Assembly: GCF_001598795.1 (NCBI RefSeq)
Contig: NZ_BCZP01000003.1
Coordinates: 210,001 to 242,000 of the forward strand
DNA: 32,000 bases
Direction of reading: 5' to 3'
Source of the DNA: Delftia acidovorans NBRC 14950
Lineage (GTDB): Bacteria; Pseudomonadota; Gammaproteobacteria; Burkholderiales; Burkholderiaceae_C
The translations under genes were made by a program, and so were the position numbers. Positions 642 through 31,855 of the stretch are shown here, piece after piece (position 1 is the first letter of the stretch; every line of letters starts with the position of its first letter). Below the pieces are notes generated by a model. That model saw nothing but the letters and a program-made list of their open reading frames with translations, was not told the origin of the DNA and ran no database searches.

Positions 642-909
642 CGTGCTGTCTCCTGCCTGTGATCGGCGGTGATCTGGAACGTGGGGGAACGCCGGGAACC
701 TCGCCTGCCATGGTCGCCCTGCCCGCAGGCGCCCGTTCTAGGGTTGACCCGCAAGCCCGGGCCGGGCGGCGCGGATATTCTCAAAATGACACAGTCGTCA
801 CCGCAGCCGCAGCCCGCACCGCTTGCGCCTGCGCGCCCCGGCTTCGACCGTGCCCGCCTGCCAGCCCGTTCGCAATCCCTTGCCAGCCAGCCACAGGAGT
901 TCCCGCCCC

Positions 910-2076
910 ATGTTCGCCCTGAGCCCCGACGCCGCGCAGCCCTGCCCCGCCGATCCGCGCCACCAGCAGGTCGCCCGGGCCCGCAGCCTGGTTTTCGGCG
1001 ATCAGGCGCTGGCCGGTTCACCGCCCGGCATCGCACCCTGGCTGTGGCGCTCCTGGCAGCGCTGCCTGGCGGCAGGCCGCCGCCCGGACGAGCGCGTGGT
1101 CTACGAAGCATTGGGGCCGCATGCGCTGCGCCAGACCCGTGATGGCCATGAGATGCTGCTGCAGGCCGCTCGCCCCGTGATGGCCCAGCTGGTGGGCGCG
1201 GTGGGCGCCATGCACTACTTCAGCCTCCTGACCGATGCACGCGGCACGGTGCTGGAGGTGCAGGGGCCGCTGGAGCGCAGCGACATCCGCGTGCAGGCCA
1301 TTGCCCGCGTGGGCGTGGACCTGTCCGAGCAGGGCGTGGGCACCACGGCCATTGGCGCGGCCCTGGCCGAGCACAGCCCCGTCTGGCTGCACCGGGCCGA
1401 GCATTTCTTCGAGGCCAACCGCCACTACAGCTGCGCGGGTGCGCCGCTGTCCGGCCCGGACGGGAGCTGCCTGGGCATGCTGGACATCACGGGCGTGGAT
1501 GTGCCGGAGCGGCCCGAACTCATGCACCTGGCGCTGCGCTGTGCCCGCGCCATCGAGGACCGGCTGCTGCGCGCCCTGCCCCATGCCCTGCTGCTGCACC
1601 TGAACTGGCCCGGCGGGCCGCTGGGCCAGGAGGGCGAAGGCCTGCTGGCCGTGGACGCCGAAGGGCATGTGGCGGGCAGCAATACCCTGGCCCGCCAGCT
1701 CGTGCCCCAGCCGCTATCGCTGCCGGGCCAGCCGCTGCACTGCAGCGAACTGCTGGCCATGCCCTGGACGGCGCTGGTGGACCATGCACGCCAGCGCCCC
1801 AACGAGCCGCTGCGCCTGCCGCTGTGGTCGGGCCTGCGGCTGCAGGCCCTGGTGCAGCCCGGCCCCCAGCTGCGCCAGCTGCTGCCCGCGCTGGGCACGG
1901 CAGCGCTGGCCACAGCCGCCCAGCCCAGCCCGCTGCGCGCCAGCGAGGGCGTGCTGATCGAGCAGGCACTGCAGGACGCCCAGGGCAATGTGACCCGGGC
2001 CGCCCGCGCGCTGGGCATCAGCCGCGCCACGCTGTACCGCAAACTGGGGGCCCGCAAGCCACACACCACCACTTGA
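910..2076 (+). CDS. Transcriptional regulator with AcoR-like N-terminal GAF-type sensor region and C-terminal Fis-type HTH; no AAA+ sigma-54 module
   Basis: C-terminus ALQDAQGNVTRAARALGISRATLYRKLG is a Fis/HTH_8 motif. The central region (GVGTTAIGAALAE..PVWLHRAEHF....SCAGAPL..PDG...GMLDITG) resembles the GAF part of AcoR-family regulators. At ~388 aa it is too short to include an AAA+ domain. Start chosen at the ATG at 910 (AGGAG about 10 nt upstream); the track ORF begins at 823. Confidence 0.7.
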   Translation: MFALSPDAAQPCPADPRHQQVARARSLVFGDQALAGSPPGIAPWLWRSWQRCLAAGRRPDERVVYEALGPHALRQTRDGHEMLLQAARPVMAQLVGAVGAMHYFSLLTDARGTVLEVQGPLERSDIRVQAIARVGVDLSEQGVGTTAIGAALAEHSPVWLHRAEHFFEANRHYSCAGAPLSGPDGSCLGMLDITGVDVPERPELMHLALRCARAIEDRLLRALPHALLLHLNWPGGPLGQEGEGLLAVDAEGHVAGSNTLARQLVPQPLSLPGQPLHCSELLAMPWTALVDHARQRPNEPLRLPLWSGLRLQALVQPGPQLRQLLPALGTAALATAAQPSPLRASEGVLIEQALQDAQGNVTRAARALGISRATLYRKLGARKPHTTT

Positions 2077-2252
2077 ACGGGACGTTTCCTCGGGTTCACA
2101 CGGATTTCTTTTAGGGGGAGCAGGCCGCCTGTGGCGGTCGGGTCTCCGTAGAATCGACGGCTTTGGTCCATGCGCCGACAAGAGCGCTGCGCGCCGGCCT
2201 ACAGGCTGGCGTACGGCGACGGACCCAATACAGCCTACTTTTTGGAGACACC

Positions 2253-2861
2253 ATGCAGGCTTTGCTCAAATTCTCAAGGGGGGTCGACTGGCTCAACAGC
2301 CTGGTCGGGCGATGGCTTATCTGGCTGATCCTGGCCTCCACGGTCATCAGCGGCATCAATGCCATCGTGCGCAAGGTGTTGCACACCAGCTCGAACGCCT
2401 ACCTCGAAGTGCAGTGGTACCTGTTCGCGGCCTCTTTCCTGCTGGCCGCCGGCTACACGCTGCTGCAGGGCGAGCATGTGAAGGTGGATGTGATCGCCAG
2501 CCGCCTGTCCAAGCGCACGCAGATCTGGATCGACATCTTCGGCTTCGTCTTCTTCCTGACCCCCATGGCGCTGGCCATCCTGTGGTTCGGCACGCCCTTC
2601 GTGATCCAGGCCATGCAGACCGGCGAGATGTCGGGCAACGCAGGCGGCCTGGTGCGCTGGCCCGTCTACCTGATGATCCCCATCGGCTTCGGGCTGCTGC
2701 TGCTGCAGGGCATGTCGGAGCTGATCAAGCGCATCGCTTTCCTGAAGGGCCTGATCGACGATCCCACGGCCAAGAAGGGCGAGAAGACCGCCGAGGAAGA
2801 CCTGGCCGACGCCCTGCGCGGGCTGGCAGGTGCCAAGGACAAAAGCGGGCAAAGCGCCTGA
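2253..2861 (+). CDS. TRAP transporter small permease (DctQ-like), with a hydrophilic C-terminal tail
   Basis: Four hydrophobic helices and typical size. Directly precedes the large permease (17-nt gap). Start at the ATG at 2253 after GGAGA; the track ORF starts at 2163. Confidence 0.85.
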   Translation: MQALLKFSRGVDWLNSLVGRWLIWLILASTVISGINAIVRKVLHTSSNAYLEVQWYLFAASFLLAAGYTLLQGEHVKVDVIASRLSKRTQIWIDIFGFVFFLTPMALAILWFGTPFVIQAMQTGEMSGNAGGLVRWPVYLMIPIGFGLLLLQGMSELIKRIAFLKGLIDDPTAKKGEKTAEEDLADALRGLAGAKDKSGQSA

Positions 2862-4854: not shown

Positions 4855-5934
4855 TCACAGCTTTTGCGCCGACATGAAGGCGTCGTAGCGCGCCTCGGCA
4901 AAGCGGAACCACAGCACCTCGTCGCGCTGGAAGTTGCGGTAGTCGCCGTAGATCTTCTTCCACGCAGGATTTTTCTCGGCCAGCTCCGCATAGACCGCCA
5001 TGGTGGTCTTGTAGGAAGCATCGAGCACGGTCTGCGGGAAGGCCAGCACCTTGGCCTTGCTGGCCACCAGTTGCTTGAGCGCGCCGGGATTGCGCGCGTC
5101 GTAGCGGGCCTGGGTGACCACATGGGCCTCGTGCGAGGCGGCCTGCACCATGGCGCGCTGCTCGGGCGTCAGCGCGGCCAGCGCCTTCTGGTTCACGTAG
5201 AACTCGAGGTTCAGGCTGCCTTCCCACCAGCCGGGGTAGTAGTAGAAAGGAGCGACCTTGTTGAATCCCAGCTTGAGGTCGTCATAGGGGCCGATCCATT
5301 CGGCCGCATCGATGGTGCCCTTTTCCAGCGCCTGGTAGATTTCGCCGCCCGGGATGTTCTGGGGCACGCCGCCCATGCGCTCGATGATCCGGCCCGCGAA
5401 GCCGCCGATGCGGAACTTCAGGCCCTTGATGTCCTCGGGTGTCTTCACCTCCTTGCGGAACCAGCCCCCCATCTGGGCGCCCGTGTTGCCGCCCAGGAAG
5501 TTGACGATGCCGTATTCGGCATAGAACTCGCGCATCAGCTTGCCGCCGTTGCCGTCCACGATCCACGCCGTGAGCTGGCGCGAGTTCATGCCGAACGGAA
5601 TGGCGCCGCCAATGGCGAAGGCCTCATTCTTGCCAAAGAAGTAGTAAGGCGCCGTGTGCGCGATCTCCACCGTGCCGTTCTGCACGCCATCGACCACGCC
5701 GAAGGCAGGCATCAGCTCGCCGGCCGCATGCACCGAGACCTCGAACTTGCCGCCCGACATCTCCTTGATCGCCTTGGAGAACACCTCGGCCGAGCCGTAG
5801 ATGGTGTCCAGCGAGCGCGGGAAGCTCGACGCCAGGCGCCAGCGTATTGCCGCCTGCGCGTGAACGGCCGGTGCCGCTGCGGCAGTCAACACACCGGCCA
5901 GACCGGCGTGCTTGAGTGCTTTTCTTCTGTCCAT
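4855..5934 (-). CDS. TRAP transporter substrate-binding protein (DctP superfamily), Tat-type signal peptide; paralogue 1
   Basis: Starts MDRRKALKHAGLAGVLTAAAAPAVHA|Q (twin-arginine motif, AxA cleavage site). Conserved WRLASSFP..LDT, GGWFRKE and PYYYYPGWWEG-like blocks typical of TRAP periplasmic components. AGGAGGA upstream of the ATG at 5934. Confidence 0.9.
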   Translation of the reverse strand: MDRRKALKHAGLAGVLTAAAAPAVHAQAAIRWRLASSFPRSLDTIYGSAEVFSKAIKEMSGGKFEVSVHAAGELMPAFGVVDGVQNGTVEIAHTAPYYFFGKNEAFAIGGAIPFGMNSRQLTAWIVDGNGGKLMREFYAEYGIVNFLGGNTGAQMGGWFRKEVKTPEDIKGLKFRIGGFAGRIIERMGGVPQNIPGGEIYQALEKGTIDAAEWIGPYDDLKLGFNKVAPFYYYPGWWEGSLNLEFYVNQKALAALTPEQRAMVQAASHEAHVVTQARYDARNPGALKQLVASKAKVLAFPQTVLDASYKTTMAVYAELAEKNPAWKKIYGDYRNFQRDEVLWFRFAEARYDAFMSAQKL

Positions 5935-5972
5935 CACTGTCTCCTCCTGGTTCGCTCTGCTTGAGAGCATTC

Positions 5973-6216: not shown

Positions 6217-7299
6217 TTACAGCTTGGCCGTGGTCATGTAGCTGTTGTAGCGGAACTCCGAGAAGCGCTCCCACAGCAGCTGGTCGCGCTGGAAGGTGCG
6301 CAGGCTCTGGTTGATCTTCTTGAACATGGGCGACTTGGCGTCATGCTCGGCCATGATCTCCATGACGGCCTTGTAGCCGGCGTCCATGAAGTCCTTGGGG
6401 AAGGCCTTGAGCTGGGTCTTGTCGGCCACCAGCTTCTTGAGCGCCACGGGGTTGTTGGCGTCGTACTTGGCCGTCATGTCGCGTGCCGCCACGTTGCAGG
6501 CTGCATCGACCATGGCCTTGTACTCGGGCGACAGGGCCGCATACGCCTTGGTGTTGATGAAGAACTCCAGCTCGGCGCCGCCTTCCCACCAGCCGGGGTA
6601 GTAGTAGTAGGGAGCGACCTTGTTGAAGCCCAGCTTCTGGTCGTCGTAGGGGCCCACGAATTCCACGGCATCCAGCGTGCCCTTTTCAAGCGCCTGGTAG
6701 ACCTCGCCCACGGGCATGTTCTGGGCGACCACGCCAAGCTTGAGCATGGCGTCGCCGAACAGGCCGCCGCCCAGGCGCATCTTCAGGCCCTTGAGATCGG
6801 CCACCGACTTGATTTCCTTGCGGAACCAGCCGCCCATCTGGGTGCCCGTGTTGCCGGCGCTCTGGCTCTTGATGTTGTACTGAGCATAGAACTCGTCCAT
6901 GAGCTTGCGGCCGCCGCCGTGCTCCATCCAGGCATCCATCTGGCGGGCGGTCAGGCCGAAGGGCACGGCGCAGCCGAAGGCGAAGATGTAGTCCTTGCCG
7001 GTGAAGTAATAGGGCGCCGTCAGCGCCATCTCGATGGTGCCGTTCTGGATGCCGTCGACCACGCCGAAGGCGGGCATCAGCTCACCGGCCGCATGCACCG
7101 AGACTTCGAACTTGCCGCCCGACATCGCCTTCAGCGTCTTGGAGAACATTTCGGCCGAGCCGAAGATGGTGTCCAGCGACTTGGGAAAGCTCGCAGCCAG
7201 ACGCCAGCGGATCGCCTCCTGGGCATGGACTGCGGGTGCGGCTCCCACAGCCAGCACGCCAGCGATTCCCGCATGTTTGATGATCGAACGACGGTCCAT
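6217..7299 (-). CDS. TRAP transporter substrate-binding protein (DctP superfamily), Tat-type signal peptide; paralogue 2
   Basis: 360 aa, MDRRSIIKHAGIAGVLAVGAAPAVHA|Q. Collinear with paralogue 1 over its full length, roughly 60% identical by eye. Confidence 0.9.
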   Translation of the reverse strand: MDRRSIIKHAGIAGVLAVGAAPAVHAQEAIRWRLAASFPKSLDTIFGSAEMFSKTLKAMSGGKFEVSVHAAGELMPAFGVVDGIQNGTIEMALTAPYYFTGKDYIFAFGCAVPFGLTARQMDAWMEHGGGRKLMDEFYAQYNIKSQSAGNTGTQMGGWFRKEIKSVADLKGLKMRLGGGLFGDAMLKLGVVAQNMPVGEVYQALEKGTLDAVEFVGPYDDQKLGFNKVAPYYYYPGWWEGGAELEFFINTKAYAALSPEYKAMVDAACNVAARDMTAKYDANNPVALKKLVADKTQLKAFPKDFMDAGYKAVMEIMAEHDAKSPMFKKINQSLRTFQRDQLLWERFSEFRYNSYMTTAKL

Positions 7300-7332
7300 G
7301 AATGTCTCTCCGCGATGTGTTGTGTCAGTCAG

Positions 7333-7424
7333 AAAAAGCCCCTACGCCCCCCTTGCTGCGCAAGGTCCGCGGCCACCCCGAGGGGGCCGCTTTTTGCCTT
7401 GGGGCGACCCGGCGGCAAAAAAAA
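7333..7424. repeat. Copy B of the ~90-bp structured intergenic repeat
   Basis: AAAAAGCCCCTACGCCCCCCTTGCTGCGCAAGGTCCGCGGCCACCCCGAGGGGGCCGCTTTTTGCCTTGGGGCGACCCGGCGGCAAAAAAAA. Lies 34 nt upstream of the paralogue-2 start codon and downstream of dxs. Confidence 0.8.
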
Positions 7425-14859: not shown

Positions 14860-15186
14860 ATGAACAATGAACAGCTGCTTGCCGAAATCCGCGAAGCCAA
14901 CCTCACTTACCTGATGCTGGCCCAGACCCTGATCCGCCAGGACAAGGCCGAAGCGGTGTTCCGCCTGGGACTGAACGAAGAATCGTGCGACCTGCTGGCC
15001 GCACTGTCGGCAGCCCAGGTGCTGAAGCTGGCCTCGCGCAACACCTTGCTCGCCAGCTTCCGGGTCGACGACGAAATGGTCTGGAGCTTGCTGACCAACC
15101 ACAGCAGCAACAAGATCGGCAACGGTGCGACCAACACGCTGCACGCCAACATCCTGATGGCCAGCCGCGTCTCCGAAGTCCTCTGA
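14860..15186 (+). CDS. flhD: Flagellar master regulator FlhD
   Basis: 108 aa. LLAEIREANLTYLMLAQTLIRQDKAEAVFRLGLNEE aligns with E. coli FlhD ([36 protein letters not shown]). Confidence 0.95.
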   Translation: MNNEQLLAEIREANLTYLMLAQTLIRQDKAEAVFRLGLNEESCDLLAALSAAQVLKLASRNTLLASFRVDDEMVWSLLTNHSSNKIGNGATNTLHANILMASRVSEVL

Positions 15187-15213: not shown

Positions 15214-15756
15214 ATGTCCACCCCCGCCAAAAGTGTCCTGAACGAGTCCAAGCAGATCGAGCGCGCCGCCATGCTCATCGAGATGGGTGCACGCATGCAG
15301 GTGCTCGAATCCGAGACCACGCTGTCCTACGAGCGCCTGATCCGCCTGTACAAGGAGATCGCCGGCAAGTCGCCTTCCAAGGGCCAGTTGCCGTTCTCGA
15401 CCGACTGGTTCCTGACCTGGCAGGAGAACATCCACAGTTCGCTGTTCCTGAATATCTACGAATACCTGTCCAAGGGCGCCGAGCTGGATGCCGTTGAACA
15501 ATTGACCAAGGCCTACCGTCTCTATACCGAGCAGATCCAGGCCGCCGAGCTGGAAGCGCTGCTGTCCTTCACCCGCGCATGGCGCCTGGTGAAGTTCGTC
15601 GATGCGCAGATGCTGACCCGCACCCAGTGCACGGTGTGCAAGGGCCAGTTCGTGACCGAGCCCTACGAGAACGAGCGCCACTACCAGTGCGGCCTGTGCA
15701 ATCCGCCCGCACGCGCCGGCAAGAGCAAGAGCGCCGGCTCGCTGATGCTGCACTGA
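15214..15756 (+). CDS. flhC: Flagellar master regulator FlhC
   Basis: 180 aa. GARMQVLESETTLSYERLIRLYKEI and KGQLPFSTDWFLTWQENIH align with E. coli FlhC. Zn-binding cysteines C..C...(x)...C..C are present (CTVCKG...CGLCNPP). Confidence 0.95.
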   Translation: MSTPAKSVLNESKQIERAAMLIEMGARMQVLESETTLSYERLIRLYKEIAGKSPSKGQLPFSTDWFLTWQENIHSSLFLNIYEYLSKGAELDAVEQLTKAYRLYTEQIQAAELEALLSFTRAWRLVKFVDAQMLTRTQCTVCKGQFVTEPYENERHYQCGLCNPPARAGKSKSAGSLMLH

Positions 15757-15769
15757 TGATCTGCACTGC

Positions 15770-15787
15770 GCATCGCACCCGCGATGC
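15770..15787. terminator. Shared hairpin in the 51-bp convergent gap between flhC and the EIIC-EAL gene
   Basis: GCATCGC-ACCC-GCGATGC (7-bp stem). No U-tract on either strand, so terminator function is uncertain. Confidence 0.3.
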
Positions 15788-15807
15788 CGCCACAGGAATC
15801 CAGGAAT

Positions 15808-17916
15808 CTAGACCGTCCCGCCGCCTGCCCTGGCGGCGCAGTCCCTGGCGAACTGCGGCAGTTTCTCGCCCGGCAGGGCGCGGCTGAAGTACCAGCCCTG
15901 CACCAGCAGATCGCCCTCGAAGCCCAGGGCCTGCAACTGCGCCTCGGTCTCCACGCCCTCGGCCACCACATTCAGCTGCAGCGCCTCGCAAAAGCGCAGC
16001 AGGCCGTCCAGCACCAGCTCGCCCTTGGCATGGCCGCTGGCCACGACGAAGCTGCGGTCGATCTTGATGGCATCCACATCGAACTGGTGCAGGTAGCTCA
16101 TGGAAGAGAAGCCGGTGCCGAAGTCATCGATGGACACCTTGGCGCCCAGCGCATGGATCTGCCCTATGGCGCGGCGGATCGCCTCCACATCGCCCACCAT
16201 TTCTTCCTCCGTGATCTCCACGCCGACCTGCCCCCTGGCCTGGGCCAGCAGCAGCATCAGGCGCGAGCAGTACTCGGGCGAGGTCAACGTGGCACCCGAC
16301 ACATTGATGCTGATCGGCATGGCAAAGCCCTCCTGGCGCCAGTGCCGGCTCTGGCGCACAGCAGCGCCCGCCACCCACAGGTCCACCTCGCGCATCAGCC
16401 CCGCATCAGCCAGCCAGCGCAGGAAACTGCCGGGCTGCTGCAAGCGGCCCTGCGCGTCCCGCGCGCGCAGCAGGGCCTCGCAGCCCAGGCACAGGCCGCT
16501 GCGGTGCGAGACCTGGGGCTGGAATTCCAGGTGGAACTCGTACTCGCTGATGCGACGGATATGCGCCAGCATGGTCTCGCGCCGGGCCTGCGCCTGGTGC
16601 GCCTGCACCAGCGGATCGCGCACGATCAGCCCGGCCTCTTCGGGCAGGCGCGAGAACGTGGTGTCCAGCGCGTGCAGCACGATGGCACCGTCGTCCTGGC
16701 CCAGCCGGTCGATGGCCCGCACGTAGGGCGCATAGATCAGCGCTCCCAGGGCCGTCAATGCCAGTTGCAGCACCACGGCCGCCATGTCCCCGCCCGTGCT
16801 CACATAGGCATTGAAGACCACGGGCGCAGTCAGCGGCAGCACCATGGAGGCCGGTGCCACCCAGCCTGCCTGCACCACCGTGACGGCCACGACCAGGTTG
16901 ATGGCGGGTACCGCGAGAAACGGCACGAGCAGGCGCAGGTTCAGGATGATCGGCAGCCCGAACAGCAGGATCTCGTTGACGTTGAGCAAGGAGATGGGCA
17001 GCGCCGCCAGCGCCAGCACGCGCAGGCCCCGCCCCCGGCAAAACAGCAGCACGGCCAGCGCCAGCGACAGCGTTGCACCGGAGCCGCCGATGAAGACGAA
17101 GGAGCCCATCAGCCCGCCGCTGAGCGCCCAGGGCGCCTGCAGCCCCTGCGCCATCGCGGCGGCATTGGCCACCACCGCCTGGTCCAGCACCTGGAAGAAG
17201 GGTTGCATGGCGTAGTACCCCTGGACGCCGAAGAACCAGAGCACGGAATTGAGCAGTGCCAGCGTCAGCCCGCTGCGGTAGGGGGTCTCTGGGCCCGCGA
17301 TGGCCAGCGGCAGTTCGGCCCGCGTGAGATCCGGCAGCACCTGTTGCAGGCCCAGCAGCAGCAGCACGAGCAGCACGGCAACAAGGGCGCCGGGAACGAC
17401 GAGGTTCATGACCTCGCGCACGTTCTCGCTCACGAAGCCGGTGCGCGCGATGCGCGTCCAGCGCAGCCGGCTCAGGCGCGCCATCAGGGGCACAGTGATC
17501 AGGGGGGAGGCGATGGAGATGAACAGCACCAGGGTGGCCGCCGCGCGCGGATGCTCGCTCAGCAGATAAATGGCCATCTGCACATGCGCGAAGCACAGAA
17601 AGGTCACCGGCAGGCGCGGCAGCCGGTGGCGTATGGAGAGCATGTAGCCGATGGACGCGGCCACCAGCAGCGGCAGGATGCTGCCGATCTCCGCGTGCAG
17701 GCCCGCAAGCACCCGCACCACGGGTTCGGGCTGGCCGGACATCTGCGCCAGCGCCGACAGGATGAGGAACAGGGCCGAGACCAGCAGACAGGGAACCAGC
17801 CAGAGCAGGCCCTCGCGTATGGCCCGCATGGAGTTGGCGCCGGCCAGCCTGGCCAGGCGCTGTGTCAGGAACAGTTGCACGTCCGGAAAGCCGGCCCGTG
17901 ACCTCTTGTTGCCCAT
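15808..17916 (-). CDS. Membrane protein with N-terminal PTS EIIC-like (lactose/cellobiose type) domain fused to a C-terminal EAL c-di-GMP phosphodiesterase domain
   Basis: N-terminal ~430 aa are polytopic, with EIIC type-3-like blocks WFFGVQGYY, FIGGSGATL and NVNEILLFGLPIILN (compare ChbC FFGIHG / GGSGATL / NEPxxFGLPIV.NP). The C-terminal part carries the complete EAL catalytic set: EALLR, ISINVS, VEITEE, IDDFGTGFSSMSYL, IKIDRSF, AEGVET, QGWYFSRA. Start taken at the ATG at 17916; the track ORF starts at 17970. Confidence 0.85.
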   Translation of the reverse strand: MGNKRSRAGFPDVQLFLTQRLARLAGANSMRAIREGLLWLVPCLLVSALFLILSALAQMSGQPEPVVRVLAGLHAEIGSILPLLVAASIGYMLSIRHRLPRLPVTFLCFAHVQMAIYLLSEHPRAAATLVLFISIASPLITVPLMARLSRLRWTRIARTGFVSENVREVMNLVVPGALVAVLLVLLLLGLQQVLPDLTRAELPLAIAGPETPYRSGLTLALLNSVLWFFGVQGYYAMQPFFQVLDQAVVANAAAMAQGLQAPWALSGGLMGSFVFIGGSGATLSLALAVLLFCRGRGLRVLALAALPISLLNVNEILLFGLPIILNLRLLVPFLAVPAINLVVAVTVVQAGWVAPASMVLPLTAPVVFNAYVSTGGDMAAVVLQLALTALGALIYAPYVRAIDRLGQDDGAIVLHALDTTFSRLPEEAGLIVRDPLVQAHQAQARRETMLAHIRRISEYEFHLEFQPQVSHRSGLCLGCEALLRARDAQGRLQQPGSFLRWLADAGLMREVDLWVAGAAVRQSRHWRQEGFAMPISINVSGATLTSPEYCSRLMLLLAQARGQVGVEITEEEMVGDVEAIRRAIGQIHALGAKVSIDDFGTGFSSMSYLHQFDVDAIKIDRSFVVASGHAKGELVLDGLLRFCEALQLNVVAEGVETEAQLQALGFEGDLLVQGWYFSRALPGEKLPQFARDCAARAGGGTV

Positions 17917-18018
17917 GGCTCCCACCCTTTTCTTCCCGGCAGAAGTCAGGCGCTCCTGTCCGGAGCACATCGTACAACGCCGGCCGCAAAGGGCTGTTGC
18001 GGCCTCCAGAGAGCAGGA

Positions 18019-20868
18019 TCAGCCCGTGTTGCGCACCCCGGCCGCGATGCCGTTGATGGACAGGTGGATGCCGGTCTTGATGCGCTCATCGGTCTGGCCT
18101 GCGCGCCAGCGCCGTACCAGCTCCACCTGCAGATGGTGCAGCGGATCGATGTAGGGGAAGCGATGGCGTATGGAGCGCGCCAGCGCTTCGTTGTGGGCCA
18201 GGCGCTGCTTGTCGCCCGTGATGCGCGCCAGCGCATCGACGGTGCTGTGCCACTCGGCCTCGATGGCGCTGAAGATACGGCGGCGCAGGCGCGCGTCCGG
18301 CACCAGGTCGGCATAGCGCGAGGCCAGGTTCAGGTCGCTCTTGGCCAGCACCATGTCCATGTTGGACAGCAGGGTACGGAAGAACGGCCACTGGCGGTAC
18401 ATCTTCTGCAGCAGGGCCAGCTGGGCCTTGCCATCCTTGCCAGGCTGGTCGATGAAGGCCTTGACCGCGGCGCCAAAGCCGTACCAGCCCGGCAGCGTGA
18501 GCCGGCACTGGCCCCAGCTGAAGCCCCAGGGAATGGCGCGCAGGTCCTCGATCTTCTGCGAGGGCTTGCGCGAGGCCGGGCGCGAGCCGATGTTCAGCTC
18601 GGCAATCTCGCGGATGGGCGTGCTGCTGAAGAAGTAGCTGGTGAAGCCGGGGGTCTCGTACACCAGGGCGCGGTAGGCGCCCATGCTGGCGTCGGACAGG
18701 AAGGCCGCCGCATCCAGGAAGGCGCGCGTGGCCGGCTTGGTCGGCTGCAGCAGCGTGGCCTCCAGCGTGGCGGCCACCAGGGTCTCCAGGTTGCGCCGGC
18801 CGATCTCGGGGTTGGCGTACTTGGAGGCGATCACCTCGCCCTGCTCGGTCAGCCGGATCTGGCCGCGCACCGTGCCCGGGGGCTGGGCCAGGATGGCCTG
18901 GTAGCTGGGGCCGCCGCCCCGGCCCACGGTGCCGCCGCGGCCATGGAACATGCGCAGGCTGATGCCATGGCTGTCGGCCAGCTCGTCGAACAGCTCGACC
19001 AGCGAGATCTCGGCGCGGTACAGCTCCCAGTTGCTGGTGAAGATGCCGCCGTCCTTGTTGCTGTCGCTGTAGCCCAGCATGATGTCCTGCTCGCCGCCGC
19101 TGCGCTGCACCATGGCCGCCACGCCGGGCAGCTGGAAGTAGCGGCGCATGATGGGCGAGGCGCTTCGCAGGTCGCCAATGGTCTCGAACAGCGGCACGAC
19201 GATCACATCGCAGATGGCGCCGTCGTCCAGCGTGCCGCGCAGCAGCCCGGCCTCCTTTTGCAGCAGCAGCACCTCCAGCAGGTCGCTGACCGATTCGGTG
19301 TGGCTGATGATGCAGTGGCGTATGGCCTCGGCGCCCAGGGCCGCGCGCAGGCGGCGCGCGGTCTCGAAGATGGCCAGTTCGCCGCGCGCATGCTCGGAAT
19401 AGTCGGCGCCCACCACGCGCAGCGGCCGCGCCTCTTCCAGCAGGCGCACCAGCAAGGCGCACTTGGCGTCTTCCTGCAGGCCCGAGTAGTCGGGCTCCAG
19501 GCGCGCGGCAGCCAGCAGCTCGGCCACCACTTCCTCATGCTTGTCCGAGCTTTGGCGCAGGTCCACCGTGGCCAGGTGGAAACCGAAGACCTGCACGGCG
19601 CGCATCAGCGGGCGCAGACGCTGGGGTGCCAGCACCTCGCCGTGGTTGCGGCTCAGGGAATCATCGATGACGCGCAGGTCGGCCAGGAATTCCTCGGGCG
19701 AGGCATAGGCGTTCTGCGGCGCCACGGCATGGCGCGCAGCCTCGCCGCCCGTCAGCCCCTTGAGCGTGGCCGCCAGGCGCGCGTAGATGCCGGTGAGCGC
19801 GCGGCGGTAGGGCTCGTCGGAGCGGTGCTCGTTGGTGTCGGGCGAGCGCTCTGCCAGGGCCTGCATCTCGGTGGACACATCGGTCAGGCGCTGGGACAGC
19901 GACAGCTCGCCGCCCAGGTAGTGCACCTCACGAAGATAGTGGCGCAGCGCCACGTCGGCCTGGCGCGACAGCGCCAGCTCAAGGCTCTGGGCCGTGACAT
20001 TGGGGTTGCCGTCACGGTCGCCGCCGATCCAGTGGCCCATGCGCAGGAAGCTGTGCACGGGCAGGGTGTTGCCCAGCTCCTGCTCCAGCTGCGCATACAG
20101 CTTGGGGATCTCGCGCAGGAAGGTGGCTTCGTAGTAGGACAGCGCGTTTTCGATCTCGTCGGCCACGGTGAGCTTGGAGTAGCGCAGCAGGCGTGTCTGC
20201 CACAGCTGGCTGACGCGGGCACGCAGCTGGGCCTCGTTGCGCTCCAGTTCACGCGGGGTGAGCGCGTCCTTGGCGCTGTTGTACAGCTGGGCGCGGGCCA
20301 CGATGTCCTCGCGTGCGGCCAGCAGTTGGGAGATGTCGCGCTCGGCCACCAGAATGCTCTGGCGCTGCACTTCCGTGGGGTGGGCCGTGAGCACGGGTGC
20401 CACATAGCTCTTGGCCAGCGTCTGCGCCACGGTGCCGGCCGAGATGCCGGCCCAGCGCAGGCGCGCCAGCGCCACTTCGATGCTGCCTTCCTGGGTGTTG
20501 CCCGCGCGCTCGTGCACGGCGCGGCGGCGGATGTGGTGGCGATCCTCGGCGAGGTTGGCCAGATGGCTGAAATAGGTGAAGGCGCGGATCACGCTCACCG
20601 TCTGGTCCGTCGTCAGGCCCTTGAGCAGACGCTTGAGCGCGCGGTCGGCGGTCTCGTCGGCATCGCGGCGGAAGGTCACCGACAGCTGGCGCACCTGCTC
20701 GATCAGCTCGAAGGCCGCCACGCCTTCCTGCTCGCGGATCACATCGCCCAGAATGCGCCCCAGCAGGCGTATGTCCTCGATCAGCGGCAGGTCCTTGTCC
20801 GTCTTGCGGACAGGCTTGTCATCACGCCTGTCATCTCGCGCATTGCTCTTGCGGGGGGCGGTGGCCAT
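18019..20868 (-). CDS. ppc: Phosphoenolpyruvate carboxylase
   Basis: 949 aa. PEPC signatures [32 protein letters not shown] and C-terminal ...[12 protein letters not shown] at 20868 has AGGAG 8 nt upstream (the track start at 20871 is a TTG). Confidence 0.97.
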
Positions 20869-20980
20869 CAACGAATCTCCTGGAATCGGTCAGCGTATCG
20901 GTTTGCTTGGGCTTCGGTCCTGGTGCCGGGTTTACTGCGGCGCAGCATGCTAGCATCCCGCGCTCCCCCCGAGGCACCTG

Positions 20981-27664: not shown

Positions 27665-30600
27665 ATGAAGCAGATCTCCATTGCCCCCGCCGTTGTCGCC
27701 GCCATTGCCGCCCATTCATTCCCAATGGCCGCCAATGCCCAGAGCATCACGGTCGCTCCGGCTGCCGCCGTCGCGGCAACCGCGATTCCGGTGGACAACC
27801 CTTGGAGTCTGTTGGCCCTTGCCATAGGGCTGGCCATGGCCGCCTGGCTGGTGCTGCGCAACCGGCAGCACCGGGCGCTCTTCATGGCGCTGTGCACCAG
27901 CGCCATCGTGTGCGCCACGCTGTGGCACAGCCCCGATCTGCGTGCCCAATTGACGGGCAGCTTTACCAACCCGGCGGGCGAGACACGGCCATTGCTCGTT
28001 GCGCAAATTGTCAATGGCGGCAATATCAATGGATTTTCTGCAGAAGATTTCACCAATGATTCCGGTGTGGCACTGAAAATCACCGCCATTCAGCCACCGA
28101 ATTTGAATCAGTGTTTTCCCTCGGGCTTCACCCATCTCATGCCGCCAGGGGCACCGCCCGCATCGCCCCCGCCTCTTTGCGCCGTGGGCAACACCATTGC
28201 GCCCAATGGCACATGCCGGGTGAATGTGGAAACCATTTGCCGCGCCGAGGCAGCCCAGGCCACGGCCGGCGCCAGCCCCACCACGCTCAGCGTTCCCGGC
28301 GCCGGCCTGTCATTTGCCGCAGGCAGCACCGGCACGGTGAACGTCAGCAACAGCGGCGGCTCGGCAGCGCTCAATGTGCAGGCCACCATTCCCGCAGGCA
28401 GCGGCATCACCATCTCCTCCAACAGCTGCGCGGCAACACTGCCTGCGGGCTCCAGCTGCGCCATCACCCTGACGGCACCCGCAGCGGAAGGCCCGACCAC
28501 CGTCAGCATTGCCGGCAGCAACGCCGCAGCCACCACCACCCCGGTCACCGTGACAGGTGGCCCGGCCCCGACCACCACGCTGAGCATTCCCGCCACGCCG
28601 CTGTCGTTTGCGGCGGGCAGCACGGGATCGGTGACCATCACCAACAGCGGCGGCGCAAATGCGCTCAATGTGCAGGCCAGCATTCCTGCGGGCAGTGGCA
28701 TCACGGTGTCCAACACCACCTGCCCTGCCGCCCTGGCACCCTCTGCCAACTGCACGATCACGTTGACCGCCCCCTCGGCGGAAGGCCCGACCGCCATCGG
28801 CTTCGGCGGCAGCAATACGGCGTCCACTTCCGTGCCGGTCACGGTGTCGGCAACCGGCACGCCCACCACGCTGAACATTCCTGCGACGTCCGTGTCCTTC
28901 GGAGCGGGCGGCGCCGGCTCGGTGACCATCACCAACAGCGGCAGCGCACCTGCGCTCAATGTGCAGGCCGGCATTCCAGGGGGCAGTGGCATCACGGTGT
29001 CCAACACCACCTGCTCCGCCATCCTGGCTCCCTCGGCCAGCTGCACGATCACGCTGACAGCCCCCTCGGCGGAAGGCCCGACCCCCATCGGCTTCGGCGG
29101 CAGCAACACGGCTTCCACGTCCGTGCCCGTCACGGTGACGACTGCCGTCCTGCCCGCCACGCTGACCATTCCCTTGGCGTCCCTGTCCTTCGGAGCGAAC
29201 GGTGCTGGCTCGGTGACCATCACCAACAGCGGCAGCGCACCTGCGTTCAATGTGCAGGCCAGCATTCCGGCGGGCAGTGGCATCACGGTGTCCAACACCA
29301 CCTGCGCCGCCATCCTGGCTCCCTCGGCCAATTGCACGATCACGTTGACTGCCCCTTCGGCCGAGGGCCCGACCAACATCGGCTTCGGCGGCAGCAATGC
29401 GCCCGCCGCTACCGCACAGGTCACGGTCACCGCACCCGTCGCGCCAACCGCGCCTACCGTTCCCCCTGCACCCGTGCTGTTCGGCGCCTACGGCGCAGGC
29501 TCGGTGACCATCACCAACAACGGAACGGCGCCCGCGTTCAACCTGCGGGCCATCATTCCGGTCGGCAGCGGCATCATGGTGGCCTCCTCCACCTGCCCGG
29601 CGTCACTGCCGGTGGGCGCAAGCTGCACCATCACACTGACGGCGGCAGGACCGGAAGGCCCCACGAACATCAGCGTTGGCGGCAGCAACACGCCGGCCAC
29701 GGCCGTGCCTGTGACAGTGACTGTCCCCGTCACGCCGACTACGCTGAACATTCCCACCACCCCCGTCTCCTTCGGCACTGGCGGTGCAGGCTCGGTGACC
29801 ATCAACAACGGTGGAAGCGCACCCGCGTTCAACGTACAGGCCAACATTCCGGCCGGCAGCGGCATCACGGTGTCCAACTCCACCTGCGCCGCCATCCTGG
29901 CCCCCGCTGCCAGCTGCACGATCACGCTGACGGCCGCTGCGGCCGAAGGTCCGACCGCCATCAGCTTCGGCGGCAGCAACACGCCGGCCACGACCGTGCC
30001 GATCACGGTGACAGCCCCCGTCGCACCCACCACGCTGAACATTCCCACGACCCCCCTGTCGTTCGGCACCAGCGGCGCAGGCGCGATCACCATCGTCAAC
30101 AACGGAACTGCACCCGCGTTCAATGTGCAGGCCACCATTCCGGCCGGCAGCGGCATCGCGGTGTCCAACACCACCTGCCCCGCCATCCTGGCCCCCGCTG
30201 CCAGCTGCACGATCACGCTGACGGCCACTGCGGCCGAAGGTCCGACCGCCATCAGCTTCGGCGGCACCAACACACCGGCGACGACGGTGCAGGTCACGGT
30301 GACGGCCCCCGTCACGCCGACCACGCTGGACATTCCCGCCGCACCCGTGTCGTTTGGCACCAGCGGAGCGGGCACGGTGACCATCACCAACAACGGGTCC
30401 GCACCGGCGTTCAACGTGCAAGCCACCATTCCGGTCGGCAGCGGCATCACGGTGGCGTCCAGCACCTGCCCTATCTCCCTGCCCCCCGGGGCCGACTGCA
30501 CGATCACGCTGACGGCTGCGGCCGCAGAAGGCCCGACCGCGGTCAGCTTTGGCGGCAGCAACACGCCCACCACGACCGTGCAGGTCACGGTGACGGTGCC

Positions 30601-31855
30601 CGTTCCCACCGCCACGCTCTCGATACCCGGCGCTCCGCTGTCGTTCGCTGCGGGCGGTTCGACAACGGTCCTTATCAGCAACACCGGCGCTTCTGCGGCC
30701 TTCAACGTGACCGCCACGGCGCCGGCCGGTAGCGGAATCACCGTGCAGTCGAACACGTGCGGTGCCGCACTCGCCTCTCTGGCCAGCTGCGGCATCACCC
30801 TGACTGCGGCCGCCGCCGAAGGCCCCACGGCCATCAGCTTCGGCGGCAGCAATACGCTGGCCACGACCGTGCCGGTCACGGTGACGGCGCCCGTCACGCC
30901 GACCACGCTGGGTATGTCCACCACGCCCGTGTCGTTCAACACAGGGGCAACGGGCTGGGTGACCATCACCAACAACGGTGGGGCCCCTGCGCTCGACGTT
31001 CAGGCCACGATTCCGGTAGGCAGCAGCATCACGGTGTCGGCCAACACCTGTGGTTCATCGCTGGCAGCGGGGGCCAATTGCACGATCACGCTGACTGGAG
31101 CCACACCGGAAGGTCCGACGGCCATCAGCTTCGCTGGCAGCAATACCCCGGCAACGTCCGTGCAGTTCACCGTGACGGCGCCCAGCACCACGACCACGCT
31201 GGGGATCTCTGCACCAACTCTGACGATTGCTTCTGGCGGCACAGGCTCCGTGACCATCACCAACACGGGATCGAATGCCGCCACCGGCATCGGCGCCACC
31301 ATCCCCGGCGGCAGTGGGCTGTCCGTTTCCGGCAACACCTGCGGGCTGTCGCTGCCGGCCGGGGGGACCTGCACGGTGACCTTCACCGCAGGTGCGGACG
31401 AGGGGCCGACCAATGTCACCATCCAGGGCAGCAACACCGACACCGCAGCCTTGTCGATCACGGTCTCGGGTTCCATCGACATTGGCGCCTACCACCTCGA
31501 TGGCAGCTGTGGTGTGCTTGGCGTCCTTGGCCCCGGCTTCACCCTCACGGCAGGCTCTGCGCCGCTTCCCGTCGGCACCACGGTGACCATCACCGGTTCG
31601 GGAGTTGCCAACATCGGTGTGTTCAGTGTGACGGGAGGCACAGCCAGTGTGTCGGTGCTTTCCCCAACCTCCCGCCAGGTCACCCTGACCTCGGCACTGC
31701 CGGCAGGGGCCACGATCGCGTTCAGAACCACGCTGTCCATCAGCGTCGCCTTCACGCTGAATGGCTCGACGACGCTGCCCAACGGCTATGCGGGCACAGG
31801 CGGGAAGCCCGCTGGCAGCGTGAGTTCCACGCTCATTCTCTGCAGCGCCACCTGA
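27665..31855 (+). CDS. 1396-aa secreted/surface repeat protein: signal peptide, N-proximal IPTL-CTERM-like sorting signal, second TM helix, 11 tandem ~97-aa modules, unique 126-aa C-terminal domain
   Basis: Single uninterrupted ORF with strong in-frame periodicity. Signal peptide MKQISIAPAVVAAIAAHSFPMAANA|QS. Details are given in the sub-features and findings. The other long ORFs across this span (both strands) are repeat-driven artefacts. Confidence 0.85.
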   Translation: MKQISIAPAVVAAIAAHSFPMAANAQSITVAPAAAVAATAIPVDNPWSLLALAIGLAMAAWLVLRNRQHRALFMALCTSAIVCATLWHSPDLRAQLTGSFTNPAGETRPLLVAQIVNGGNINGFSAEDFTNDSGVALKITAIQPPNLNQCFPSGFTHLMPPGAPPASPPPLCAVGNTIAPNGTCRVNVETICRAEAAQATAGASPTTLSVPGAGLSFAAGSTGTVNVSNSGGSAALNVQATIPAGSGITISSNSCAATLPAGSSCAITLTAPAAEGPTTVSIAGSNAAATTTPVTVTGGPAPTTTLSIPATPLSFAAGSTGSVTITNSGGANALNVQASIPAGSGITVSNTTCPAALAPSANCTITLTAPSAEGPTAIGFGGSNTASTSVPVTVSATGTPTTLNIPATSVSFGAGGAGSVTITNSGSAPALNVQAGIPGGSGITVSNTTCSAILAPSASCTITLTAPSAEGPTPIGFGGSNTASTSVPVTVTTAVLPATLTIPLASLSFGANGAGSVTITNSGSAPAFNVQASIPAGSGITVSNTTCAAILAPSANCTITLTAPSAEGPTNIGFGGSNAPAATAQVTVTAPVAPTAPTVPPAPVLFGAYGAGSVTITNNGTAPAFNLRAIIPVGSGIMVASSTCPASLPVGASCTITLTAAGPEGPTNISVGGSNTPATAVPVTVTVPVTPTTLNIPTTPVSFGTGGAGSVTINNGGSAPAFNVQANIPAGSGITVSNSTCAAILAPAASCTITLTAAAAEGPTAISFGGSNTPATTVPITVTAPVAPTTLNIPTTPLSFGTSGAGAITIVNNGTAPAFNVQATIPAGSGIAVSNTTCPAILAPAASCTITLTATAAEGPTAISFGGTNTPATTVQVTVTAPVTPTTLDIPAAPVSFGTSGAGTVTITNNGSAPAFNVQATIPVGSGITVASSTCPISLPPGADCTITLTAAAAEGPTAVSFGGSNTPTTTVQVTVTVPVPTATLSIPGAPLSFAAGGSTTVLISNTGASAAFNVTATAPAGSGITVQSNTCGAALASLASCGITLTAAAAEGPTAISFGGSNTLATTVPVTVTAPVTPTTLGMSTTPVSFNTGATGWVTITNNGGAPALDVQATIPVGSSITVSANTCGSSLAAGANCTITLTGATPEGPTAISFAGSNTPATSVQFTVTAPSTTTTLGISAPTLTIASGGTGSVTITNTGSNAATGIGATIPGGSGLSVSGNTCGLSLPAGGTCTVTFTAGADEGPTNVTIQGSNTDTAALSITVSGSIDIGAYHLDGSCGVLGVLGPGFTLTAGSAPLPVGTTVTITGSGVANIGVFSVTGGTASVSVLSPTSRQVTLTSALPAGATIAFRTTLSISVAFTLNGSTTLPNGYAGTGGKPAGSVSSTLILCSAT
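27785..27874 (+). other. Internal exosortase-type sorting signal (IPTLxxWG-like motif + TM helix + basic cluster), residues 41-70
   Basis: IPVDNPW-SLLALAIGLAMAAWLVL-RNRQHR. It is immediately followed by a second hydrophobic helix, ALFMALCTSAIVCATLW (residues 71-87, to nt 27925). Confidence 0.6.
28286..31474 (+). repeat. 11 in-frame tandem repeats of ~291 bp (97 aa) inside the giant CDS
   Basis: Module consensus: L.IP..P(L/V)SFG..G.GSVTITN.G.APA(L/F)NVQA.IP.GSGITVSNTTC.A.LAP.A.CTITLTA.(A)AEGPT.I.FGGSNT.AT.V.VTVT.PV.PTT. The 45-nt string gccatcctggcccccgctgccagctgcacgatcacgctgacggcc is identical at 29891-29935 and 30182-30226, an offset of exactly 291. Confidence 0.95.

Follow-up and report, generated by a model that had tools for sequence, protein, structure and literature searches.

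What does a sugar-permease domain do when it is joined to an enzyme that breaks down the second messenger cyclic di-GMP (c-di-GMP), and does it matter that the gene for such a protein lies beside the flagellar master regulator? This question is raised by a gene of Delftia acidovorans NBRC 14950, found in the window analysed here, a stretch of 32,000 nucleotides covering positions 210,001 to 242,000 of contig NZ_BCZP01000003.1 (assembly GCF_001598795.1). A first-pass annotation, made from the sequence alone, had described its product as a fusion of a membrane domain resembling the EIIC permease component of the phosphotransferase system (PTS) with a catalytically intact EAL domain, and had proposed that the transporter fold now serves as a ligand sensor. 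Sequence comparison and structure prediction lead us to favour, with a probability of roughly 0.6, a reading in which this protein, termed EIIC-EAL below, is an inner-membrane, dimeric, c-di-GMP-specific phosphodiesterase with a PTS-independent ligand input supplied by its EIIC domain.

The EIIC-EAL gene occupies positions 15808..17916 on the minus strand and, in the list of open reading frames (ORFs), encodes 702 amino acids starting with MGNKRS. An alternative in-frame ATG at position 17970, 54 nt upstream, would add 18 residues and give a protein of 720 residues; the start at 17916 is favoured because the annotated Delftia protein P0001, also of 702 residues, spans the query end to end (99% identity, 100% coverage). 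The profile check named in the first-pass annotation was run, and both Pfam domains scored well above their gathering thresholds: PTS_EIIC (PF02378) with 76.3 bits against a cut-off of 30.7 (E 3e-21; residues 35-337, model positions 2-319 of 319) and EAL (PF00563) with 197.8 bits against a cut-off of 31.3 (E 2.2e-58; residues 455-679, model positions 7-235 of 236). Every motif quoted earlier for the two halves was found in the order given: WFFGVQGYY (227-235), FIGGSGATL (275-283) and NVNEILLFGLPIILN (312-326) in the EIIC block, followed by EALLR (480-484), ISINVS (535-540), EITEE (567-571), DDFGTG (597-602), KIDRSF (618-623), EGVET (653-657) and QGWYFS (673-678) in the EAL block. An assembly or frameshift artefact was ruled out as the origin of the fusion, as the same architecture of 690-700 residues occurs in hundreds of genomes. 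A 705-aa ORF at 15784..17901 on the plus strand, antisense to nearly the whole gene, has the look of a typical high-GC shadow ORF and is no gene.

The EAL domain (15808..16551, minus strand; residues ~456-702; PF00563) retains the full set of catalytic and metal-binding residues, namely E480, R484, N538, E567, E570, D597, D598, K618, E653, E656 and Q673, the equivalence of which to the RocR numbering we take as given. Loop 6, which as DFG(T/A)GYSS is required for dimer-dependent EAL activity, is also intact (DDFGTGFSS, 597-605). The motifs line up one for one with those of the phosphodiesterase domain of Pseudomonas aeruginosa MorA (4RNI), so the claim of an intact catalytic set stands. To follow conservation across the family, we used 134 full-length members, mostly representatives of different 50%-identity clusters and reaching down to 23-25% identity. 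Eight of the 11 catalytic positions are identical in all 134 members, and the remaining three, K618, E653 and E656, are kept in 133, 133 and 127 members, respectively. In the predicted structure the domain has predicted local distance difference test (pLDDT) values mostly above 90, and Foldseek aligned the model with solved EAL phosphodiesterases (MorA, BifA, MucR, PdeA and TBD1265) at TM-scores of 0.83-0.88. MorA, BifA (8ARV), MucR (5M1T), RocR (3SY8) and T. denitrificans TBD1265 (2R6O/3N3T) share 29-32% identity with this domain and carry metal and catalytic motifs and a loop 6 of identical type; these enzymes stand alone or are linked to sensors, and the difference lies in the input domain, where an EIIC permease fold takes the place of a PAS, GGDEF, REC or MHYT-type sensor. 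From alignment and model, the EAL domain appears catalytically competent in type, and it is unlikely to be a degenerate, receptor-type domain. A c-di-GMP receptor in the manner of LapD or FimX was considered and rejected, because the catalytic residues are all present and conserved.

The membrane half of the protein (16702..17850, minus strand; residues ~23-405) comprises ten predicted transmembrane (TM) helices and two re-entrant hairpins of the Lac/cellobiose/chitobiose family type. In a phmmer search, the sole non-EAL structure matched was ChbC (3QNQ), the N,N'-diacetylchitobiose EIIC of Bacillus cereus (E 4e-26, query residues 23-404 against chain residues 15-424 of 442), to which the EIIC half is ~22% identical. 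We predicted the structure with AlphaFold2 from a 96-sequence alignment, obtaining a pLDDT of 90.5 and a predicted TM-score (pTM) of 0.82; this model supersedes an earlier one from a shallow alignment (26 sequences, >=56% identity), which had a pLDDT of 70, a poor EIIC domain and a TM-score to ChbC of 0.42. ChbC ranked second overall in the Foldseek search with the new model (E 1.5e-15, probability 1.0, ~436 columns) and was the only transporter matched, and the helix pattern of the model agrees with an EIIC scaffold of TM1-5 and a transport domain of TM6-10 with two hairpins. Lysine and arginine residues number five at the N-terminus, five in the TM4-5 loop, six in the linker after TM10 and none in the presumed periplasmic loops. 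This distribution places the N-terminus, the TM4-5 loop and the linker in the cytoplasm and thus the EAL domain on the cytoplasmic side, together with its substrate. Taken together, alignment and model show the N-terminal 400 residues as a complete Lac/chitobiose-family EIIC fold with a predicted N-in/C-in topology and a cytoplasmic EAL domain.

Between the two domains lies a cytoplasmic linker (16552..16701, minus strand; residues ~406-455), in which the motif LDTTFxRLxEE is conserved across the subfamily and the columns of T420, F421, L424, E426 and possibly D418 are invariant in the subfamily alignment. Its residues 410-425 have low pLDDT in the model, followed by a long helix preceding the EAL domain (435-456).

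Conservation is also strong at the substrate site. The EIIC-EAL family shares with ChbC and the Lac/cellobiose EIIC family (PF02378, TIGR00410, TC 4.A.3) the motifs WxxGxHG, GGSGATL and NxNE...FGxPIxxNP. Within the family, the motifs WxxGxHG, GGSG and NxNE...P...N are either invariant or kept in at least 90% of sequences, even where overall identity is 23-30%, the positions concerned being W227, G230, H232 (Q in the window protein), G233, G277, G278, G280, N312, E315, P322 and N326. This conservation argues that the binding and translocation core is still in use and that the domain does more than anchor the protein. Across EIICs of the glucose/fructose/lactose (GFL) superfamily, conservation of sugar-coordinating residues is limited to two, which in ChbC are Glu334 and His250 (PMC11393339). 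In the alignment to 3QNQ, the equivalent of Glu334 is kept as E315 in the NVNE motif (codon 16972..16974, minus strand), and that of His250 is replaced by Q232, the Q of WFFGVQGYY (codon 17221..17223, minus strand), a detail missed by the first-pass annotation. Among the 134 members, the Glu position holds Glu in 129. The His position is taken by His in 120 members, by Asn in 10 and by Gln in 3; these three are the window protein and the two Delftia relatives closest to it within the set. Gln is specific to the Delftia clade, occurring in the window protein and in its close relatives P0002-P0005. The window protein differs from ChbC in this substitution, in the C-terminal EAL domain and in having no EIIA or EIIB partner nearby.

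EIICs dimerise and their transport domain is of the elevator type; EAL domains, for their part, depend on a defined geometry of the dimer. On this background, we propose that the EIIC module has been uncoupled from the phosphotransferase system and would now supply the input. The conserved substrate site would be occupied by a small ligand resembling a carbohydrate, most likely a β-linked di- or oligosaccharide or a relative of one, and its binding would move the elevator-type transport domain (TM6-10), which the ~50-residue linker ties to the EAL domain. Such a shift would alter the geometry of the EAL dimer and hence the rate of c-di-GMP hydrolysis, and the output would be a fall in c-di-GMP that favours motility over attachment. 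The His-to-Gln exchange in Delftia fits a site that would still bind ligand while the chemistry of phosphoryl transfer is no longer needed. The use of a transporter fold as a ligand sensor, as the first-pass annotation had it, is plausible from the conserved substrate-site motifs and the lack of EIIA and EIIB genes nearby, and we infer it on these grounds.

Several points weigh against this proposal. The TM-score to ChbC is just 0.49-0.52, which could reflect another elevator or conformational state or a genuine divergence. Among the NCBIfam models, TIGR00410 (lacE subfamily) gave 149.6 bits, under its cut-off of 236, TIGR00359 gave 149.6 bits against a cut-off of 434, and the chitobiose and lactose equivalogs fell far under their cut-offs; with TIGR00410 and all equivalog EIIC models under cut-off, sugar specificity cannot be transferred from them. 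Judged by its sequence, the EIIC half is a divergent member of the Lac-type EIIC fold and no recognisable cellobiose, chitobiose or lactose permease. Moreover, given Q232, the binding site of the window protein may deviate from the family norm or be impaired, and an EIIB partner may be encoded away from the Delftia locus. Finally, the literature searched contained no genetic or biochemical study of any EIIC-EAL member, in agreement with what had been said of this fusion type before; the one paper found to mention the architecture is a census review. The Gln at the site His and the score under the TIGR00410 cut-off would also fit an EIIC domain that is a ligandless fossil, which dimerises and tethers a constitutive phosphodiesterase to the membrane. 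A mere anchor, however, would not be expected to keep near-invariant substrate-site motifs across clusters of 23-30% identity, and we regard this explanation as improbable.

The genomic context bears on whether the EIIC domain still serves transport. No PTS EIIA, EIIB, HPr or EI domain was found in the scanned genes of the window, in line with the first-pass annotation, and no EIIA, EIIB, HPr or EI gene was among the recurrent neighbours of 88 family loci. When the flanking ORFs of these loci were clustered, the neighbours proved to be genus-specific, and only generic families recur across genera. The Pseudomonas copies adjoin a block of type VI secretion system and PP2C/kinase genes as well as oxidoreductases; the Achromobacter copies lie between an ECF sigma factor/TonB receptor pair and a Band-7 protein with an M4 peptidase; and those of Vibrio tapetis, Marinobacterium and Dechloromonas have unrelated neighbours. 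As to the hosts, P. putida runs only the PTS-Fru and PTS-Ntr branches (PMC3312210), and by inference the same may apply to the fluorescens group, which has many EIIC-EAL members.

EIIC-EAL could still be a true transporter or transceptor, in which the EIIC domain moves sugar by facilitated diffusion or with unlinked EIIB and EIIA proteins, and the EAL domain either reports flux or regulates uptake through c-di-GMP binding. The full core, including both hairpins and the Glu/His pair, is kept family-wide, and elevator transporters are capable of uniport. On the other hand, linked EIIA, EIIB or sugar-catabolic genes were absent from the lineages examined, hosts such as the pseudomonads have a minimal PTS, the Delftia clade lacks the His used in phosphoryl transfer, and the EAL domain is catalytic in type with no drift towards a receptor. 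We therefore consider retained transport unlikely.

In the phosphotransferase system, it is EIIB that becomes phosphorylated; EIIC has no phosphorylation site and serves to bind the sugar and translocate it. A 2022 census review (Randall et al., PMC8846402) lists PTS_EIIC as a rare partner of domains of the GGDEF, EAL or HD-GYP type and terms it a 'phosphoreceiver' domain, a label that is probably wrong for EIIC-EAL proteins. The term would nevertheless fit a protein whose EIIC domain docks an EIIB-like or PTS-Ntr protein and reads the phosphorylation state of the PTS with no external ligand. A precedent is the EIIA-Glc/PdeS pair of Vibrio cholerae (PMC8846402), which likewise makes c-di-GMP hydrolysis depend on carbohydrate status; in that pair, a soluble EIIA acts in trans and signals through its phosphorylation state, whereas in the window protein a membrane EIIC is fused to the enzyme and no phosphorelay partner is evident. 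Against such a receiver, established PTS biochemistry gives EIIC no site to be phosphorylated, no Lac-type EIIB gene is linked in the examined loci, and the conserved residues belong to the sugar site rather than to an obvious docking surface. This explanation is thus very unlikely, and a ligand input through the EIIC domain remains our preferred reading.

How widespread are such proteins? Relatives of EIIC-EAL occur in at least 514 species-representative genomes, and the hosts among the matches listed include the Pseudomonas fluorescens group, Achromobacter, Acidovorax, Comamonas, Bordetella ansorpii, Dechloromonas, Azonexus, Marinobacterium, Corticimicrobacter, Vibrio tapetis and Grimontia. 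The best 150 matches among 50%-identity representatives are nearly all 650-750 residues long and cover both domains, down to 25% identity, and all ten divergent representatives scanned with Pfam carry PTS_EIIC and EAL. The window protein itself is 99% identical to an entry from Delftia sp. JD2 and 57-61% identical to many members from the P. fluorescens group. The architecture is already annotated and catalogued, and the window copy is not new: NCBI already has a name for the product, 'PTS sugar transporter subunit IIC/EAL domain-containing protein', and the fusion type is mentioned in the census review. Within this annotated family, the window protein is an ordinary member set apart only by the His-to-Gln exchange of the Delftia clade and by its site adjacent to flhC. 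One relative of unusual build, P0130 (1243 aa), combines EIIC, an EAL domain cut short to model positions 8-176 and calcium-binding repeats of the RTX type, being either an unusual fusion or an assembly chimera.

Given the variety of membrane input domains on c-di-GMP enzymes, an EIIC input domain is unusual yet not startling. Its interest lies in the fact that the input signals of most bacterial GGDEF and EAL enzymes are unknown, and a permease-derived input with a conserved sugar site makes the problem approachable: the Lac/chitobiose EIIC family suggests candidate ligands, E315 and Q232 are obvious sites, and hydrolysis and motility are easily scored as outputs. EIIC-EAL could also reveal a role for 'orphan' EIIC domains in bacteria that have no matching phosphotransferase components, and it provides a test case for elevator-type transporters as receptors.

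The second part of the question concerns the neighbouring flhD (14860..15186, plus strand; PF05247, 3.6e-36) and flhC (15214..15756, plus strand; PF05280, 2.4e-83), which form the flagellar master regulator operon. The flhC stop codon TGA ends at position 15756 and the EIIC-EAL stop codon lies at 15808-15810, so the two genes converge across a spacer (15757..15807) of exactly 51 bp, the stop-to-stop distance reported earlier. This spacer holds a small GC hairpin, GCATCGC-ACCC-GCGATGC, the fold of which is no better than that of shuffled sequences (z -1.6 and -0.5), and no intrinsic terminator was called within the 51 bp. Three Delftia lineages compared at this spacer show no conservation of its sequence, each version having a GC-rich palindrome.

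Delftia lineages at 74%, 78%, 91% and 99% protein identity retain the order of ppc, EIIC-EAL and the converging flhC-flhD pair, and their spacers measure 30-51 bp. Acidovorax-like relatives (59-72% identity) have the same backbone, with ~3-4.3 kb of other genes between EIIC-EAL and flhC, these being an AI-2E transporter or a cytochrome c/flavocytochrome pair, a hypothetical gene and an FlgO-like gene. An FlgO-like lipoprotein gene directly adjoins flhC in Acidovorax-like relatives (locus L085, 10946..12114; L087, 10808..12153; L165, 10642..11190); in L085 and L087 it is preceded by a conserved hypothetical gene without a Pfam match, and this pair is absent from the Delftia window. The closest homologues outside Delftia, from Comamonas sp. 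(71%; L001/L086) and Acidovorax sp. SDU_ACID1 (70%; L002), have neither flhDC nor ppc nearby, and the same holds for the members from Pseudomonas, Achromobacter and Vibrionaceae. Overall, flhDC is within reach in just 11 of the 88 family loci, all from Comamonadaceae (Delftia or Acidovorax-like).

We also surveyed the junction from the flhC side, using 80 metagenomic loci that encode a close relative of FlhC (>=85% identity), and 47 of these carry ppc no more than 10 kb away. The genes flhC and ppc converge in every one of the 47, and the slot between them measures 24 bp to 9.1 kb. EIIC-EAL fills the slot in nine loci, seven of them Delftia-like duplicates of the window arrangement; six hold an unrelated (PAS-)GGDEF-EAL gene, confirmed with Pfam in L138 and L165; and 32 have no EAL gene, including five with a slot under 450 bp. 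The (PAS-)GGDEF-EAL gene encodes ~790-805 residues (L138, 7043..9460; L165, 14938..17301; also L156, L164, L166 and L168), belongs to another Comamonadaceae lineage and converges on ppc, with Spherulin4-like and AI-2E transporter genes alongside. The convergent flhC-ppc pair in 47 of 47 loci, together with the varied contents, indicates that this is an ancestral Comamonadaceae backbone junction and a site of gene turnover; in Delftia the slot holds EIIC-EAL as its sole cargo, which accounts for the direct contact with flhC. Across Comamonadaceae, two different c-di-GMP genes, FlgO-like genes and a methyl-accepting chemotaxis protein (MCP) gene were found in the slot, which is mildly suggestive of motility-related cargo.

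The flagellar regulon of Escherichia coli and Salmonella includes an EAL phosphodiesterase, PdeH (YhjH), which is soluble, has no sensor domain and is expressed from a FliA-dependent promoter. PdeH and the window protein are alike in that their catalytic output comes from an EAL domain only and would reduce c-di-GMP in motile cells; unlike PdeH, the window protein has a membrane EIIC input. A search upstream of the EIIC-EAL gene for the sigma-28-like pattern TAAA-N15-GCCGATAA or a near match, and hence for a FliA-type promoter, found none, although the consensus is enterobacterial and the test therefore weak. With the PdeH precedent, the convergent adjacency maintained in Delftia and the GGDEF-EAL, FlgO-like and MCP genes of the slot elsewhere, one could picture EIIC-EAL as a dedicated partner of flhDC, a PdeH-like phosphodiesterase of the Delftia flagellar regulon that is co-regulated through convergent interference or through FlhDC and FliA. 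Being convergent, however, EIIC-EAL and flhC are not co-transcribed; most slots lack an EAL gene, most family members, including the closest non-Delftia homologues, are located elsewhere, and neither the missing -10 box nor the unconserved spacer speaks for such control. A dedicated partnership is thus unlikely, a matter separate from the function of the EIIC domain. We conclude that the place of EIIC-EAL beside flhDC is a sign of its insertion into the variable flhC-ppc slot rather than of a dedicated regulatory pairing, and that the link to flhDC is weak and mostly an accident of gene order. The earlier statement that a c-di-GMP-lowering enzyme is physically paired with the top of the motility hierarchy was therefore overstated; of the synteny it called for, the part within Delftia was borne out, and beyond it only the few family loci and flhC-ppc slots counted above share the arrangement. 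For annotation, the lesson is that adjacency to flhDC is not to be taken as functional pairing.

More tentatively, we raise the possibility, which we consider less likely than not, that EIIC-EAL proteins represent a PTS-independent receptor class, in which an elevator permease has been turned into a ligand-gated c-di-GMP switch that would let bacteria with a minimal PTS sense β-linked oligosaccharides and switch to motility, and that the recurrence of EAL, flgO and MCP genes in the slot of Comamonadaceae would reflect genuine selection for cargo linked to motility. Candidate ligands would then be breakdown products of chitin, cellulose or matrix. In Grimontia marina (L079, 9334..11913), a chitinase-like gene with GH18, CBM5/12 and Big_7 domains lies ~300 bp downstream of the gene that follows the EIIC-EAL homologue. 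In Marinobacterium and Dechloromonas, methyl-accepting chemotaxis genes stand directly upstream of the homologues (L076, 4059..5690; L052, 4102..5811). These are possible but anecdotal hints at ligand and pathway, coming from one or two loci each.

On its other side, EIIC-EAL is preceded by ppc (18019..20871, minus strand; PF00311, 1080 bits), the phosphoenolpyruvate carboxylase gene, which lies directly upstream on the same strand at a gap of 102 bp. The order of ppc followed by EIIC-EAL, with a gap of ~65-220 bp, was found in all Delftia and Acidovorax-like loci. Neither a sigma-70-like promoter nor a T-rich terminator was detected above chance in the 102-bp gap, and the two genes may be co-transcribed. 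Right after the ppc stop codon (17972..18018, minus strand) there is an 8-bp GC-rich hairpin, GGCCGCAA...TTGCGGCC, which has no T-run and a stability not above that of shuffled controls.

The other genes of the window are of a housekeeping kind. One flank contains a TRAP transporter, dxs, ispA, a Rieske oxygenase, an EamA permease and a rhodanese, and the other contains, beyond ppc, hemCDXY, a cytochrome b561, two YceI genes and a large protein with Ig repeats. The last is encoded by a 1396-aa ORF (27665..31855, plus strand) with Ig-like matches (Ig_GlcNase 6e-15, ASH 3e-11) and probably represents a large protein of the surface or adhesin type. A gene filter based on GC3 wrongly favoured two long minus-strand ORFs overlapping it (28108..29487 and 29488..30999), which match no Pfam family and have the appearance of shadow ORFs. 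Between 25 and 32 kb of the window, the GC skew is strongly negative. At the opposite end, a 428-aa protein (790..2076, plus strand) has only a C-terminal Fis-type HTH_8 domain, its ~380 N-terminal residues being without a Pfam match and without an AAA+ or receiver domain. Beside it lies the TRAP cluster, comprising DctQ (2115..2861), DctM (up to 4708) and two DctP paralogues (4855..5970 and 6217..7341).

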